DNA from: Methanocaldococcus jannaschii DSM 2661
GTDB lineage: Archaea; AGJL01; Methanococci; Methanococcales; Methanocaldococcaceae
DNA length: 32,000 nt
Direction: 5' to 3'
Assembly: GCF_000091665.1 (NCBI RefSeq)
Contig: NC_000909.1
Span: 674,048 to 706,047, forward strand
The position numbers were made by a program, and so were the translations under genes. The notes beneath the pieces were generated by a model that searched no databases, was not told the origin of the DNA, and saw only the letters and a list, made by a program, of their open reading frames with translations. Each line of letters opens with the position of its first letter. The stretch's first letter is position 1. Below are positions 1,100 through 15,456 of this stretch, piece by piece.

Positions 1100-1783
1100 T
1101 TATTCTTTTTTAGTATTTTTAGTAAAAGCTGAAAAAGATAATGCTCCTTTTTTACATACACTCATGCATTCAAAACATCTTATACACTCCATCTGGTCTA
1201 TTTTTTCTGTTATTTTTATCTGCATTGGACATTTTCTTTCACACAATCTACAACCTACACATTTATTTTCATCAAGTTTCAGTTTAAAGATTGAGAATCT
1301 CGCAAATATACTCAACAAAGACCCCACTGGACAAACATATCTGCAGAAGAACATTGGATAAATAAATCCTAAAACTAAAAATAAAGCCAACAGCAGATAT
1401 GCCAATGTATATCCAGAGATTTTAACTCCAGATAGGTATGCTAAAACCACTAAAATTAGCACAACATACTTAAAATAAATTAATTTATTGTGAATTTTCT
1501 CATCAACTGTTGGTAGTTTTTTTAATTTAAAGAGTTTTACCCTCAACTCATAAACTAAATTAAATAAAAATCCAAATGGACACATCCATCCACAAAAAAC
1601 CCTTCCAGCAATAAACGCCAATACTATAGCGATGATTTTTGTTATTATAGTAGCTAATATCCTATCTCCTATAATAAATCTCTTAATAAATCCTACAATA
1701 CTCAAATAAAAACCAGTAACTATTAAAGCTCTCACAAAAAATAATGTTTGAGATATTTTCCTCAATATTTGTATTTTATTCAT
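1100..1783 (-). CDS. Polyferredoxin-like integral membrane Fe-S protein (NapH/NosR-like: CGWMCP and CRYxCP motifs plus C-terminal 2x[4Fe-4S] ferredoxin domain)
   Basis: Track ORF is 1100..1840. I prefer the start at M20 (ATG 1781-1783, GGTGA at 1789-1793) because the paralog begins MDKIQILRKISQTLFF and this one then begins MNKIQILRKISQTLFF. Motifs: CGWMCPFG, CRYVCPVG, CVGCRLCERKCP, CIRCFECMSVC. Confidence 0.75.
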   Translation of the reverse strand: MNKIQILRKISQTLFFVRALIVTGFYLSIVGFIKRFIIGDRILATIITKIIAIVLAFIAGRVFCGWMCPFGFLFNLVYELRVKLFKLKKLPTVDEKIHNKLIYFKYVVLILVVLAYLSGVKISGYTLAYLLLALFLVLGFIYPMFFCRYVCPVGSLLSIFARFSIFKLKLDENKCVGCRLCERKCPMQIKITEKIDQMECIRCFECMSVCKKGALSFSAFTKNTKKE

Positions 1784-1945
1784 AAGATTCACCATAAAAC
1801 CCCAATTATCAAACTTTATAATATAAACTCTGGAATCCAAAATATAAAAAGATTTTTAGCCAGATATTTTAAAAATAGGAGGATAAAAATTAGATAAATC
1901 TAATAAAAAATTTGTATAATTGTTAATAAAAAATAGAAGTTTTTA

Positions 1946-2662
1946 TTAACTTCTCTTTTTGAATGCATAAGAAAAGGACAAGGCATCTTTTTTACAGCTA
2001 CTTTTACATTCAAAGCATCTTATACATTCCTTTTGGTCAAGTTTTTCAGTTATTTTTATTTGCATTGGACATTTAAACTCACAAAGTTTGCATTTAACAC
2101 AGTTGTTATTGGTTTTTAATTGAAAGAATGGTTTTATTGAAAATATTGATAAAAACGCTCCTAAAGGGCAGAAATATCTACAAAATGCCATCGGAACAAA
2201 GAAGGATAGGCTTAAAAAGAAAATCAATATTATAAGGGATATAACTGTTCCGTAAAGATTCGTTAAAAATCCAATTGGACAGACTTGACAGAATGCATAG
2301 ATTGAAAGATAGTAAGTTAAAACTAAAGACAGAATTAAAACAACATATCTTAAATATATCAGCTTGTTATGAACTTCCTCATTAACTGTTGGTAATTTCT
2401 TTTTCATAAATAACTTCATCCTTAATTTATACATTAGCTCAAATAAAAATCCTAATGGGCACATCCATCCGCAAAAAACCCTTCCCAATATTAAAGTTAA
2501 AACAACAATAACAACCAACTTAGCTATCAACTGTCCAACACTTCCCTTTAAAATAAACTTCTCAATTATCCCAAAAAAACATAAACAAAAACTTGTCAAA
2601 AATACAAAATAAATAAAAAATAATGTTTGAGAGATTTTCCTCAATATTTGGATTTTATCCAT
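1946..2662 (-). CDS. Polyferredoxin-like integral membrane Fe-S protein, tandem paralog of 1100..1783
   Basis: 238-aa ORF with CGWMCPLG, CRYFCPLG, CVKCKLCEFKCP and CIRCFECKSSC motifs and several hydrophobic helices. GGTGG box upstream of the ATG at 2660-2662. Confidence 0.75.
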   Translation of the reverse strand: MDKIQILRKISQTLFFIYFVFLTSFCLCFFGIIEKFILKGSVGQLIAKLVVIVVLTLILGRVFCGWMCPLGFLFELMYKLRMKLFMKKKLPTVNEEVHNKLIYLRYVVLILSLVLTYYLSIYAFCQVCPIGFLTNLYGTVISLIILIFFLSLSFFVPMAFCRYFCPLGAFLSIFSIKPFFQLKTNNNCVKCKLCEFKCPMQIKITEKLDQKECIRCFECKSSCKKDALSFSYAFKKRS

Positions 2663-2669
2663 TTACAAC

Positions 2670-2810
2670 CACCGTCCTCCACTATGTAGGTGTTTATAGA
2701 TTTTAAGTAATCTCTTGTATTGGTTCTCCCGTTCTGTCCTCTTTTAATAAGAGGACTTCATCAGGGAGCGTTCGGGGGAACGGAAACTCCCCACATCCTG
2801 ACTTTTCTTA
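2670..2810 (-). ncRNA. Candidate omega-RNA / right-end structured RNA of the TnpB element (ends not determined)
   Basis: GC-rich island spanning the tnpB stop. It has a perfect 8-bp hairpin GTCCTCTT-TTAAT-AAGAGGAC (2736-2756, stop codon in the loop) and CGTTC-GGGG-GAACG (2769-2782). GGGAG (2764-2768) can pair with CTCCC at either 2726-2730 or 2787-2791. In TnpB elements the guide RNA scaffold overlaps the 3' end of tnpB. Confidence 0.3.
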
Positions 2811-3580
2811 AATAAATTAAATGTAGCAACAACATCCCTATCAAATACTAAATTACAATTATTGCATTTTAACAACCTCTGCCCATTCGGGTCTAATTTA
2901 CACCCACATATTGGGCAGAGTTTGGACGTTCTTGAGGGATTTACATATTCAACATCTAAACCATCCCACTTTGCCTTGTACTCAATAAAAAATTGGAGTT
3001 TGGAAAAATTCCATCTGTTTAATCTTCTCCTAAAATTTTTTGATTTTTTATTAACTGCCTCCCTGATATTTGTTAAATCCTCCATTAGTATCTTTACATT
3101 GTATTTTAATGCCTCTGAAATCAGAAACTTTGAAATTTTGTGTAAGTAATCCTCAACTTTTCTTTTTTCCCTTCCAGAATATTTTTCCATGAGAGTTTTT
3201 AACTTCATTGGTTTATTGGAAAGCTTCTTTTGTATTTTCTCCCTCTTTTTTGAGAAATTCTCATGAATTCTCTTTAACTTATACACATCTAAACGGGTTG
3301 TCTTAATGACGTTTCCATCTTTATCAAAAATTGAGTATGTAATATTCTTTTCATTGATGTCAATTGTCATGATATGTTCAAAATTTTTAGGATTAACAAC
3401 TTTTTTGAATGGGATTATAATAGAATCTTTCTTAATAATCACTTCTCCAATTTTGAAGTTTCCATTTTTCCACTCTTCAATAAATTTTTTCTGATAATCA
3501 CTAACAACTAAATTTATAGTGATAAATTTTCTTGGTGCAGTGATAATTTTTATTTTATCCCCCTCGAATTTAAACAGCAT
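2744..3580 (-). CDS. tnpB: TnpB (OrfB) RNA-guided nuclease family, C-terminal part with complete RuvC-like and zinc-finger modules
   Basis: RuvC-I D in MTIDINEKN, RuvC-II E in KILMEDLTNI, zinc finger CPICGC...CNNCN, RuvC-III D in FDRDVVATFNL. The reading frame is open upstream to 3682 (SSNINLKNFRKRKRKGLTKKDKPEVKKDFVKLEE precedes the first Met). Confidence 0.85.
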   Translation of the reverse strand: MLFKFEGDKIKIITAPRKFITINLVVSDYQKKFIEEWKNGNFKIGEVIIKKDSIIIPFKKVVNPKNFEHIMTIDINEKNITYSIFDKDGNVIKTTRLDVYKLKRIHENFSKKREKIQKKLSNKPMKLKTLMEKYSGREKRKVEDYLHKISKFLISEALKYNVKILMEDLTNIREAVNKKSKNFRRRLNRWNFSKLQFFIEYKAKWDGLDVEYVNPSRTSKLCPICGCKLDPNGQRLLKCNNCNLVFDRDVVATFNLFKKSQDVGSFRSPERSLMKSSY

Positions 3581-3663
3581 TTCCTCAAGTTTTACAAAAT
3601 CTTTCTTAACTTCTGGCTTATCCTTTTTTGTTAAACCTTTCCTCTTCCTCTTTCTAAAATTTT

Positions 3664-3894
3664 TTAAATTGATGTTGCTACTCTACAAGCAGAGTGACAG
3701 TAATGAGTATGATATTTTGGATACCATTTTTCCTTCCATTCATTATATATTGCCTTTCTTAATTTTGCGTAAGAAGTAATTCCCAGCTCCATTGCCTTAT
3801 CAATGCAAAAATTAACCATTTCTTTAAAATCATATATTAACTCAACAACATCTGAATAATACTTAAATTCGATGGCTTTAATTACTTCCATCAT
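3664..3894 (-). pseudogene. tnpB: N-terminal fragment of the same tnpB, separated from the RuvC part by a frameshift
   Basis: The 76-aa ORF ends ...HYCHSACRVATSI*. The downstream tnpB frame is open from 3682, so the two frames overlap only at 3664-3682, next to an A6 run. Joined length would be about 380 aa, typical of TnpB. Confidence 0.6.
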
Positions 3895-4014
3895 CCATCA
3901 ACTCCTTTTTATAGTTTCTTTGAGTTTTTTCACCTTATGACTTCTCATTCCATACGAAAGACAGATGGTTTGCTCCCAATGAACCCAGAGGGAGTTAAGG
4001 TTGATGATTCCCAA

Positions 4015-4052
4015 GTCCAACATGGAGTTATGCCTATAACGTCATGTTGGAC
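4015..4052. repeat. Sub-terminal hairpin of the IS element (left-end side relative to tnpB)
   Basis: GTCCAACATG (4015-4024) pairs perfectly with CATGTTGGAC (4043-4052). The inner stem GTTAT/ATAAC extends it after a 2x2 internal loop. IS200/IS605 ends carry such imperfect palindromes. Confidence 0.6.
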
Positions 4053-4094
4053 AGACCCCTGTATTGAGCAGACTTAACTTATACTGATATACAG

Positions 4095-4718
4095 CTAAAA
4101 TTTGAACAACAAATCTCTTAAATTTATTGTTGAGAATAAAAAGGATACTATCTTATCCAATATTGTATTTCCCACTTTTTCATTTCCACTGTTGTTGTTA
4201 TTTAAATCTCTATTATTATCAATTGTATTGGTTGTATTTAGTTTAATCTTTCCCTCTTCAATCATACATTCAACAATAGCTTTTTTAATAACACTTGGAG
4301 GGATTCCATAAACTTCCTTAATCTCTCCAAAGGTTGTATCATCTGGAACATTAATATTCAACTTTTCCTTTAAACATTTTGGACTTATACCATATTTGTC
4401 ACAAACCTGTTTTATTGTATAGGATTTTAACTCTTTACCTGAGATACCAACATACTCATTAATCAATTCCTCTGTTAATTCTAAACTACTCACATTACTG
4501 GTCTTTATCTCTTCCTCGTTGTTTGTTGTTTTTATTGTTGTTGTGGGAGGGGGCTCACTATGGTCGCAAATTCCATTGTGGTTTGTATCAATGTATCTTC
4601 CACACTCCCCCGGATAGGTGCAATTTACCCTTCCATAAGGGCAGTCATTCCATGCAAAAGATAAGGATAAAATGGAAAAAAGCAGAAGAATTGCTACTAT
4701 TTTATTTATAATTTTCAT
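4095..4718 (-). CDS. Secreted protein with a Cys-rich N-terminal motif; function unknown
   Basis: Track ORF 4095..4727 starts at GTG. The ATG at 4716-4718 has a GGTGA box at 4724-4728. Signal-like [22 protein letters not shown] is followed by [36 protein letters not shown], then two related ~30-aa segments ([18 protein letters not shown] / [18 protein letters not shown]). Confidence 0.6.
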
Positions 4719-4723
4719 ATTCT

Positions 4724-5281
4724 TCACCTATTCATTCCCCTCTCCGTAGAACTGCTTATTATTTCTTCATATTCTTCCTTACTTATGTATTGAGGAGTAT
4801 AATTAGAACCATAATTATTAAGCATTCTAACAAATGCCCTCATGTGGTTTCTTGAACCTTTCATTAAATTTTCATAAACAAATTTTATATCCTCATTGTC
4901 TGTCTTGTTTATCCATTTTTCTAAATCAGCAATATCTAAATCTTCAATAGTAGCTCCAACTTTTAATGCATCAACTTCTGATTTATCACCTTTCTCAACT
5001 AACTTTTTATATAGTTCCTCAAATTTTGGGTTTGAAAATACTCCAATACTATCATTTTTAACTGGGTCTGGGATGTTGTATTTTTCTAAGAGATATTTAA
5101 CTGCATCCATGTGTGTTTGCTCACTTTCAGCAATGTTCTTAAATATCTGTAATTTCCATTTATTATATAGCGTTAAATAAACATCTCTCGCTAATTTCTC
5201 CTCTTCCCTCATCTCAATGAGTCCCTCTTTTTCCTCTTCACTTATTGGTTGTTTTGGTAATGAGCTTATATATTCAAGCAT
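4724..5281 (-). CDS. Ferritin-like four-helix-bundle protein, DUF2202 family
   Basis: The 185-aa ORF has paired EExxH-like motifs ([12 protein letters not shown]...[11 protein letters not shown]...[10 protein letters not shown]...GSRNHMRAF). No GGTG box precedes its ATG, unlike neighbouring genes. Confidence 0.75.
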
Positions 5282-12760: not shown

Positions 12761-14407
12761 TTACCCAACTAATCTTTTAATATCTTCATCAACTGTTGAG
12801 ATCGTTGAGATTCCAAACTTCTCAACTAAAACTTTTGTCACATTTGGTGATAAGAACGCTGGTAGTGTAGGGCCTAATACTATATTCTTAACTCCCAAGT
12901 AAAGCAAAGCTAATAATACAGTAACTGCCTTTTGCTCATACCATGAGATGTTATAAGCGATTGGAAGTTCATTTACATCGTTTAAGCCAAATGCATCTTT
13001 TAAAGCCAGTGCAATTTTAACTAACGAATAGCTATCATTACACTGTCCAGCATCTAAAACTCTTGGAATTCCATCAATGTCTCCCAAATCTAATTTAATA
13101 AATCTATATTTTGCACATCCACATGTTAATATAACAGTATCTTTAGGCAGTTTTTTAGCAAATTCAGTATAATACTCTCTTGTTTTATGCCTTCCATCAC
13201 ATCCGGCCATTACAACGAATTTCCTTATTTTTCCACTTTTAACTGCTTCAATTACTTTATCTGCCAGTGCTAAAACTTGGTTATGAGCGAATCCTCCAAC
13301 AATCTTACCATTTTCGAGTGGTGTTGGTGGTTTGCATTTTTTAGCGTGCTCTATAACCTCTGAAAAGTCCTTAGTTCCATCCTCTTTTACTGGGATTCTC
13401 TTTAAGCCAGGATAGCCAACTTCGTTGGTTACATAAACCCTATCTTTATATGAGTCCTTTGGTGGAACTAAACAGTTTGTCGTCATCACTATTGGACCGT
13501 TGAATTTCTCAAATTCCTCTCTTTGGAACGGCCATGAACCTCCATAATTTCCAACGAAGTGCTCATATTTCTTAAAGAATGGGTAGTAGTGGGCTGGCAA
13601 CATCTCACAGTGGGTGTAGATATCAACTCCTGCATCCTTACTTTGCTCTAATAATTGCTCTAAATCTTTTAAGTCGTGACCACTAATCAATATTCCTGGT
13701 CTGTCTCTAACTCCCAAATTAACCTCTGTTATTTCTGGATGCCCATAGGTTTCAGTGTTCGCTTTATCTAATAATGCTAACGTTTCTACTGCATACTTTC
13801 CTGTCTCCATTGCTAAATTAAATAACTCATCAGCATCTTTGCTATCAACGATTTTAGTGAATGCTTTAATTATAAACTTATGAATGTCCTCATTGTTGTA
13901 GCCGAGATGCATGGCATGGCTTAGATAAGCTCCTATTCCTTTAATTCCATAAGTTATAAGCTCTTTTAATGATCTTATGTCTTCATTATCCTCTGCTAAG
14001 ACGCTAACTTCTTTTGTATTGGCTAAATTTATTAGATCTTCATCAGTTTCGTAAGCCCAAGTAGCACAGTATGGAAGTTCTTCTTTATTTAAATTATTTT
14101 TTTCTATAATTTTTTCTCTTAAAGCGACTCCTTTCTTTATCCAATTTATTACATCTTTATCATCAAAATTGACGTTAGTTATTGTTACAAATAATGCTTT
14201 TGGAATGTAATCCATAACTTCATCATCCAAGTAATTGCCTTTATCACAGACATAGCATAAACCTTTTATAGTATAAATCAATAAATCTTGGAGGTTTGCC
14301 ACAACATCATCTTTTCCACAGACTCCTTTTATTGTACATCCTTCATTTTTTGCTGCCTCTTGACATTGGAAGCAGAACATTTTTGTAGGTCTTGGTTCAA
14401 ATTTCAT
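12761..14407 (-). CDS. hcp: Hybrid-cluster (prismane) protein / hydroxylamine reductase
   Basis: N-terminal CxxCx8Cx5C ([21 protein letters not shown]). The 548-aa length and conserved blocks ([36 protein letters not shown]) are typical of Hcp. GGTGA box at 14412-14416. Confidence 0.9.
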
Positions 14408-14677
14408 TATTTCACCCTAAGACTTTTAATATCTGCAAACATTTACAATGTATTTGACAGATGCTTTACATTAAAATCTTTTCTTTTTCATTGTATAAAT
14501 ATATTTTTGACCTTCTTCTTTTGGAGATAGGGGTAATTAATATCACTCACTTTGAAGATAGTTGATATAATTATTATGATAAATCCTGATTTTGTATTAC
14601 CTACAATATTATTATCTTTTATAGGTTTATATTCAGATGTATAAGTATATAGTGCAAAAATAAAAATAAAAATTAAT

Positions 14678-14999
14678 TTAGAAGTGAGAACTCATAACAA
14701 CCTTTGCTCCCATCTTTTCAATCTCTTCCTTCATCTTTTCAGCATATCTACATTTTGGTTTAAATGCAGTCATGCATGTTGCAAAATGAACAACCTCTGC
14801 CCCATTCTTCCCTATTAACTGCTTTATCTGATTCAATCCTAACCTTCCTGGGCAACCCCCACATGTTATTACTGACAATAACTCAACATTCTCATAGTCT
14901 TTGAATGTATCTTTTTTTGTTTAATGCTACTGCTATGCATCCAACGCCTGGACACGTTTTTGCCGCACTATCACATCTTAAAATAACTACCTTTGTCAC
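14678..14999 (-). pseudogene. CGGC-domain protein interrupted by a +1 frameshift in a homopolymer
   Basis: GTG at 14997-14999 (GGTGA at 15004-15008) gives VTKVVILRCDSAAKTCPGVGCIAVALNKK, then a stop at 14892. The downstream frame reads KKDTFKDYENVELLSVITCGGCPGRLGL...; the track ORF 14678..14878 is its TTG-started tail. Removing one T from the T7 run at 14911-14917 restores one ORF of about 106 aa. Confidence 0.6.
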
Positions 15000-15048
15000 A
15001 ATATCACCAACAAATTTTTAATTATAATTTATAATTTATGATAAAAAA

Positions 15049-15456
15049 CTAAAAAATAATAACCTTGTCATAAATCTTTCCATTGATTTTCTCAATTTCT
15101 TCATAAAACTTTGAAATATCTTTAGAGTTTCCTTCAACAACAAAAATCTCTACTTTAGCATTTTTCCCGCAAGATGTTGTTACATAAGCCTGATTCAAAG
15201 ATTTTATAACTTTATTATGTTCAAAATACAACTTACTCATCTTTTCCAATGCTTCCTTTGTAGGATTATAAACAACTATTATAATCCCACTAACAGTTTC
15301 ATTCTTATTTAATGGATTGTTTTCCAACACATACTTTCTTACAGCATCCCTAATTAACTCACTTCTACTCGAATAACCTTTCTTTTTAACAACTTCATCA
15401 ATCTCTTTTAAAAGGAATTTTGGAAATGATATACTGATTCTCTCAACATTAACCAT
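15049..15456 (-). CDS. NikR-like ribbon-helix-helix transcriptional regulator
   Basis: N-terminal RHH (ISISFPKFLLKEIDEVVKKKGYSSRSELIRDAVRKYV) plus an ACT-like C-terminal domain. The canonical NikR His/Cys nickel ligands are not obvious, so the effector is uncertain. Confidence 0.7.
   Translation of the reverse strand: MVNVERISISFPKFLLKEIDEVVKKKGYSSRSELIRDAVRKYVLENNPLNKNETVSGIIIVVYNPTKEALEKMSKLYFEHNKVIKSLNQAYVTTSCGKNAKVEIFVVEGNSKDISKFYEEIEKINGKIYDKVIIF

Follow-up and report, generated by a model that had tools for sequence, protein, structure and literature searches.

Organisation of the locus

The window analysed here is a stretch of 32,000 nucleotides (nt) of the Methanocaldococcus jannaschii genome (1.74 Mb, three replicons), corresponding to positions 674048-706047 of contig C1. 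On its minus strand, a gene for a 210-amino-acid (aa) protein is followed by two open reading frames (ORFs) of a disrupted tnpB gene, then by two polyferredoxin-like genes and the 5' part of a gene for an FprA-like flavoprotein (Table 1). The subject of this report is the tnpB-bearing DNA between the 210-aa gene and the first polyferredoxin gene, which a reading of the sequence alone had taken for a TnpB-only insertion sequence (IS) spanning 2663-4094. The evidence below suggests instead, with a probability that we put at about 0.85, that the minus strand of 2672-3954 is a dead, immobile, 5'-truncated remnant of an IS607-family element, which was inactivated recently and whose damaged guide-RNA scaffold is still recognisable. 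The right end lies at 2672, and 3957-4094 does not belong to the element. The distance of 81 nt from the tnpB stop (2744-2746) to the ATG of the next gene (2662) was as described in the sequence-only reading. The locus is probably MJ0751/MJ0752, to judge in part from the Pfam family names; a literature search revealed no mention of MJ0751.

Table 1. Features of the locus, in window positions.
Feature	Position	Strand	Basis
210-aa gene	4095-4727	-	ORF list
45-nt segment supplying the stop of the upstream gene (TAG, 4095-4097)	4060-4104	-	absent from empty sites
Last ~100 nt of another structured repeat resembling a right end (type 2), which ends GGACAGACCCC	3957-4059	+	repeat matches in the genus
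5'-truncated IS607-family element, comprising the end of tnpA, a frameshifted tnpB and the right end, which carries the omega-RNA scaffold	2672-3954	-	L034 homology
Serine-recombinase tnpA, last 18 codons and stop (YGMRSHKVKKLKETIKRS*)	3898-3954 (codons 3901-3954)	-	alignment to relatives
76-aa ORF	3664-3894	-	ORF list
tnpB N-terminal fragment, 76 codons (stop 3664-3666)	3667-3894	-	ORF list; aligns to residues 1-76 of relatives
Frameshift 1, T3 vs T4 in L034, within ...CAATTTAAAAAA...	3667-3671	-	pairwise alignment
Main frame of tnpB, 307 codons, including the RuvC D-E-D triad and the zinc finger; stops prematurely at 2744-2746	2747-3667	-	
278-aa ORF	2744-3580	-	ORF list
Frameshift 2, C5 vs C6 in 17/17 relatives	2774-2778	-	
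Predicted omega-RNA scaffold	2672-2810	-	model R1, covariation
Scaffold helix P1	2787-2792/2775-2780	-	
Scaffold helix P3	2764-2768/2726-2730	-	
Scaffold hairpin P4	2749-2756/2736-2743	-	
Scaffold long stem P5, decayed	about 2712-2723/2679-2690	-	
Scaffold conserved terminus, GGAGGACGG	2672-2680	-	
Putative guide position, first 20 nt past the right end	2652-2671	-	relatives diverge right after ...GAACGG; use as a guide is presumed
First polyferredoxin-like gene, intact, directly downstream of the insert	1946-2662	-	ORF list; Pfam Fer4_5
Second polyferredoxin-like gene	1100-1840	-	ORF list
FprA-like flavoprotein gene, 5' part		-	ORF list

The element is a truncated member of the IS607 family

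The closest relative of the element is a metagenome locus, L034, with 88.3% nt identity across 1283 nt. L034 carries intact tnpA (169-825) and tnpB (809-2002) genes. Homology to L034 breaks off at both 2672 and 3954, and position 3954 falls inside tnpA. In most relatives, a conserved coding sequence upstream of tnpB forms the 3' end of a gene for a protein of ~215 aa with a MerR-type helix-turn-helix (HTH) and a resolvase domain, an IS607-type serine-recombinase TnpA whose gene overlaps the tnpB start; the tnpA of L034 (169-822) matched Resolvase (1.8e-23) and HTH_17/MerR. The window retains the very end of this gene, which aligns with the tnpA 3' end in more than 15 relatives. The statement that the element has no tnpA was therefore nearly true, save that the last 18 codons survive, and the tnpA of the relatives together with the remnant identifies a truncated IS607-family element rather than a TnpB-only IS. 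Pairwise alignment with L034 revealed exactly three 1-nt deletions in the window, each in a homopolymer: one in an A-run of the tnpA remnant near 3911, one in a T-run near 3669 and one in the C-run at 2774-2778. Lacking a left end and with its tnpA deleted, the window copy is not a mobile copy of the IS607 type.

The right ends of the family read ...GAGAACGG, with an ACGG terminus in 20/20 loci and total divergence right after it (...GAACGG, then flanks that differ at once). The right end of the window copy, GGAGGACGG, stops at 2672 and has GGAGAACGG as its counterpart in the relatives. This sequence had previously been read as the ribosome-binding site of the polyferredoxin gene, and is instead the conserved terminus of the element. 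Flanks at the left end terminate in GGG in all 11 loci with a visible left-end junction, and the base before GGG is mostly A or T. Neither inverted repeats nor a target duplication turned up in the family. According to a review of IS607 elements, insertion takes place at or after GG and the element ends in (C)GG (PMC13565253). The ACGG right end and the GGG left flank agree with this published rule, which supports the IS607 identity of the family.

Members of the family were found in metagenome-assembled genomes of several thermophilic archaeal phyla. In M. jannaschii the element is single-copy, as judged by a DNA search and by a search of the genome with the covariance model R1 described below, and the three other tnpB paralogues of the genome have only ~29-32% protein identity. 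The proposal to build a covariance model from TnpB copies of the same genome is thus impossible to carry out, the three paralogues being ~30% identical and neither search revealing a second copy. The sole IS607-type tnpA of the genome is located at contig C1 14847-15455; it is intact, is 50% identical to the TnpA of L034 and adjoins an MJ0012-type tnpB with three in-frame stops (13566-15455 for the pair). In the metagenome locus L037 (~2380-2500), a right end (...GGAGCGGAGAACGG) lies ~20 nt ahead of the tnpA start of the next copy, suggesting an arrangement of IS607 copies in tandem.

tnpB is interrupted by two frameshifts

The minus-strand tnpB was confirmed by its scores against NCBIfam guided_TnpB (131 bits, cutoff 100) and Pfam Cas12f1-like_TNB (4.9e-19). 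Alignment with solved TnpB/Cas12f chains (PDB 9nzp, 8bf8 and others) and with 23 relatives showed that the RuvC residues D (TIDINEKN), E (ILMEDL) and D (FDRDVVAT) are in place, as are both CxxC pairs of the CxxC...CxxC zinc finger. The single break in the frame reported earlier, near 3669, was also found, and at this site 23/23 relatives are continuous through ...ATSILKNFRKRKRKG.... A second break, in the C-run at 2774-2778, had been missed. Owing to this deletion the stop at 2744 is premature: the frame of the relatives runs on as ...SPRTLPDEVWLIKPDGTGEPL..., and in the window the tail ...PRTLPDEV...GEPIQEIT* can be read in a different frame to a stop at 2703-2705. Frameshift 2 costs tnpB its conserved C-terminal tail and costs the scaffold helices P1/P2 one C. 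With these two 1-nt deletions, the window does not contain the continuous ORF of a TnpB nuclease.

Ten independent assemblies (Logan, JGI, ENA, NCBI) match the window over 2400 nt, with the exception of one polymorphism elsewhere, which shows that the frame breaks are not sequencing errors. The ratio of nonsynonymous to synonymous substitution rates (dN/dS) of tnpB relative to L034 was 0.083, and neither of the reading segments has an in-frame stop. This low ratio suggests that the inactivation is recent relative to the divergence from L034.

The tnpB 3' end overlaps a conserved but decayed omega-RNA scaffold

The GC content is 0.51 at 2720-2799 compared to about 0.25-0.33 in the surroundings, in agreement with the GC-rich segment previously noted in AT-rich DNA. 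This segment is the core of what we predict to be a family-conserved omega-RNA scaffold that extends over the 3' end of tnpB. Across the relatives (20 compared), the final ~140 nt of the element hardly vary in nucleotide sequence, with proteins that are only 65-70% identical and synonymous sites that are saturated elsewhere in tnpB. One short stretch is translated in two frames among the relatives (SQNVGSFR vs SGCGEFR). The near-invariance of the nucleotides and the stretch read in two frames suggest that the constraint acts on the RNA.

RNAalifold predicted a structure of five helices in which 97.1% of the cells are paired, compared to 86.1% in shuffles. Compensatory changes were found at 13 pairs, and 58 cells had changed on both sides, where shuffles gave 19.5 such cells and slid controls no more than 16. 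The covariance model R1 was built from 17 relatives, with the window left out of training. R1 matched the window at 2672-2810 on the minus strand with 111.8 bits (E = 5e-29), its sole match in the window and in the genome, and it found 41 further scaffolds at tnpB 3' ends in loci on which it had not been trained. Nucleotide conservation, covariation and an independent covariance model thus bear out the scaffold that had been suspected at the tnpB 3' end. The extent of 2722-2805 given for it captured the core and fell short of the full span matched by R1, and the ends of the element as determined by copy comparison keep the whole of 2672-2810 inside it.

The window copy of the scaffold is structurally degraded. 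Intact relatives on which R1 had not been trained scored 142-169 bits, above the value for the window copy. The minimum-energy fold of this copy has -36.8 kcal/mol (z = -2.0) and leaves the family helices P1 and P5 unformed, whereas relatives adopt the family structure at -49 to -50 kcal/mol (z = -3.3 to -4.4). As counted from the sequence, only ~7 of the 12 positions of the long stem P5 pair, and the copy is short of one C common to P1 and P2. No Rfam 15 family, RAGATH-18 and HgcC included, matched at E <= 1 in window 2000-5000 or in the loci L034, L042, L140, L148 and L155.

An invariant UGAUGA-type motif (2761-2763 and 2757-2760, minus strand) is located in the internal loop between P3 and P4, and GAUGA motifs recur in the unrelated type 2 repeat described below. 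By analogy with archaeal C/D RNAs, these motifs might be K-turn-like protein-binding sites.

The element lies in an insert at a stop/start junction

Homologues of the 210-aa gene in nine other Methanocaldococcus genomes terminate in ...RDLLFGWL*, and their TAA abuts the polyferredoxin ATG (TAAATG; ...TTTGGGTGGTTGTAAATGG...). The comparison with empty sites in relatives, which had been suggested as a check, thus revealed an uninterrupted junction, and it follows that the insert of 1.43 kb found at this junction in the window (2672 to ~4104) is specific to M. jannaschii. The empty site reads TTTGGG|TGG. On the right, the insert has a clean junction of the IS607 type, at which GGTGG before the ATG has been kept, because the element ends in GG and IS607 inserts at GG. 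On the other side, the 210-aa gene (Pfam MJ0753_N) has a C-terminus ...FKF* (4095-4110, minus strand) where the genus-wide C-terminus is ...FGWL*, and its stop comes from the inserted DNA. The 45 nt at 4060-4104 that supply this stop had no significant match to a left-end profile, to the fetched loci or to the rest of the genome. By eye they resemble the left ends of relatives, but a left-end remnant found no support: the profile of 11 left ends misses them in a genome-wide search at E < 20, and blastn-short gave nothing significant.

The flank from 2671 downwards is TGGTTGTAAATGGATAAAAT, which covers the Shine-Dalgarno-like GGTGG and the ATG (2660-2662) of the first polyferredoxin gene. In every copy the flanks diverge directly past ACGG. 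A guide had been placed at 2663-2700. Since copy comparison puts the end of the element at 2672, the guide would instead run from 2671 to ~2652, and the range given earlier is mostly scaffold.

The dN/dS of the first polyferredoxin gene was about 0.06 relative to orthologues in seven genus genomes. We also considered relaxed selection on this gene: its dN to an outgroup was 0.155 compared to 0.122-0.150 in other species, which does not amount to a clear acceleration and would carry no information if the insertion happened recently. At 2573-2579 (minus strand), within the gene, the independent run assemblies ERR9765757 and ERR9765767 have T6 and not T7, which would frameshift the 5' part of the gene and represents either a polymorphism of laboratory lineages or an assembly error in the homopolymer. 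Upstream of the second polyferredoxin gene lies a separate AT-rich region that contains T-runs and TATA-like boxes. An influence of the insert on polyferredoxin expression is plausible, because it split a stop/start-coupled junction. Given the separate upstream region of the second gene, any such effect would probably be limited to the first. A passive effect on the first polyferredoxin gene is likely, in which translational coupling would be lost and transcription of the gene would rely on read-through or a fortuitous promoter.

A fragment of a second repeat adjoins the tnpA remnant

Between the tnpA remnant and the 45-nt segment lies a fragment of a different structured repeat, here called type 2, which is head-to-head with the tnpA remnant at a gap of only ~2 nt. 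Other Methanocaldococcus genomes (G011, G013) contain as many as 11 matches each to the type 2 repeat, and M. jannaschii has only this 5'-truncated piece. In G011 it forms units of ~304 nt without an adjacent tnpB. The repeat is seen at L158:1729-2032 and in L138-L154. In each unit the 5' part is AT-rich and TATA-like, and the 3' part is structured and rich in GC. In five genomes, the sequence just 3' of MJ0012-type tnpB genes resembles the 5' half of the repeat in the sense orientation, and the terminal hairpin shows a few compensatory changes. The repeat had no match in Rfam. Type 2 may be a stand-alone guide-RNA mini-element. Conjecturally, insertion of such a mini-element into the IS followed by a deletion would account for the arrangement at the left.

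Proposed history and alternative explanations

We propose that an IS607 insertion sequence entered the M. jannaschii lineage. It would have carried tnpA, tnpB and an omega-RNA encoded from the 3' end of tnpB through the right end, and would have inserted downstream of TTTGGG, exactly at the TAA/ATG junction that linked the 210-aa gene to the first polyferredoxin gene. As is known for the family, TnpB and omega-RNA would, while active, have recognised and cut the empty site (the G-rich motif followed by TGGTTGTAAATGG...), favouring retention of the element. Decay would then have removed the left end and nearly all of tnpA, in whose place a fragment of the other repeat and 45 nt are now found, and would have introduced the two homopolymer deletions into tnpB, with loss of the P1/P2 C and of most of the long-stem pairing in the scaffold. 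The present effects of the element would be passive: the first polyferredoxin gene is held 1.43 kb from its former operon, and the C-terminus of the upstream protein has changed from ...FGWL to ...FKF. Expression of the polyferredoxin gene would most likely depend on read-through, either from upstream or out of the insert itself.

Several points weigh against this reading. The catalytic residues of TnpB are all intact and dN/dS is low, and rescue of tnpB by rare frameshifting may formally occur. The proposal does not account for the left junction, where the target TGGG is missing, for the 45 nt, or for the position of the type 2 fragment beside the tnpA remnant. Some residual RNA may also be made, and the right end may harbour a promoter.

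One such promoter would arise if the right end had been co-opted. Changes in the P5 loop would have made a TATA-like box, TCTATAAA (2693-2700), which would now drive the first polyferredoxin gene after its separation from the operon. The box lies ~22-30 nt upstream of the element boundary and differs from the octamer of the closest relative at the same spot (TTCCTAAA in L034), GGTGG before the ATG is preserved at the junction, and the polyferredoxin gene is intact and conserved. However, a promoter scan revealed no exact common archaeal TATA octamer on the sense strand of the element, the motif is one mismatch from the consensus, and such matches are frequent in AT-rich DNA. Read-through from the upstream operon explains expression equally well, and we regard co-option as improbable. 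It is similarly doubtful that this would amount to an exaptation in which transcription now starts at the former element boundary and the GGTGG regenerated by the ...CGG end on GG has kept the gene translatable. If it did, a host redox gene would have acquired its promoter and leader from a guide-RNA scaffold.

The sequence-only reading had proposed that the omega-RNA is still made, with its guide in the polyferredoxin leader, and that processing or read-through actively modulates the string of two polyferredoxin genes and fprA. The scaffold is indeed recognisable by R1, the insert reads in the same direction as the first polyferredoxin gene and directly adjoins it, and this gene is under purifying selection and hence still transcribed somehow. 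Against this, the guide was misplaced, given the right end at 2672, the scaffold has suffered damage in P1/P2 and P5, and the second polyferredoxin gene has an AT-rich upstream region of its own with TATA-like boxes after T-runs. TnpB, on which the processing and stability of omega-RNA depend (PMC10278001), is moreover frameshifted twice. With the protein partner broken and the scaffold damaged, active regulation of the polyferredoxin genes by RNA appears unlikely, and the model as a whole has a slim chance of being correct.

A full-length, active TnpB made by programmed frameshifting or transcriptional slippage at the T3A6 tract is very hard to credit: the break adjoins homopolymer runs and the catalytic residues are intact, but the frame is continuous here in 23/23 relatives, so the shift is a mutation of the window copy, the zero-frame codons before the stop (TCA ATT TAA) form no X-XXY-YYZ slippery heptamer, the second, independent frameshift near the C-terminus would need rescue too, and the loss of tnpA and the left end leaves nothing to maintain.

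As a truncated IS607 relic with defined boundaries, the element requires a corrected annotation of the locus, in which it is no longer a TnpB-only IS. It illustrates how an IS607 end can settle between translationally coupled genes while the ribosome-binding motif downstream survives. The scaffold family, supported by covariation and absent from Rfam, is found in IS607 elements across thermophilic archaeal phyla, and its intact members are candidates for heat-stable compact nucleases.

Comparison with known systems

The relatives of the element resemble IS607 of Helicobacter pylori and IS1535 of Mycobacterium tuberculosis in having a MerR-HTH/Resolvase tnpA that overlaps tnpB. The family also shares with IS607 elements the CGG end, insertion downstream of a G-rich motif (GGG, mostly after A/T) and a guide-RNA scaffold at the right end. 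Unlike these elements, the window copy has no left end, retains only 18 tnpA codons, carries a frameshifted tnpB and is immobile. Its lineage is archaeal and thermophilic and is spread over several phyla.

In TnpB omega-RNA systems, such as the ISDra2 reRNA and the RAGATH-18-derived RNAs of IS607 TnpBs (PMC11061315), a structured RNA likewise overlaps the tnpB 3' end and reaches the element boundary. The variable flank serves as the guide in these systems, and the same layout presumably held for the window copy. Its scaffold differs in lying outside the Rfam 15 families, in being degraded and in being predicted from sequence. As with the domesticated, nuclease-dead TnpB repressors of the TldR type (PMC10705468), the putative guide of this TnpB-derived locus lies across the region in which an adjacent host gene starts. 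Unlike a conserved host regulator of that type, the locus has intact RuvC residues and a broken ORF, and its insertion is confined to a single species and has a genuine transposon end. A TldR-like domestication was ruled out by the intact catalytic residues, the genuine right end and the absence of the insert from nine genus genomes. The type 2 repeat is reminiscent of protein-less TnpB-related mini-elements (PATE-like) in forming ~304-nt units without an adjacent tnpB. Rfam distinguishes it from the HgcC RNA mini-transposon, and the window holds only a 5'-truncated piece of ~100 nt. Set beside these systems, the element is an ordinary case of an already known kind and contains nothing that would surprise a specialist.

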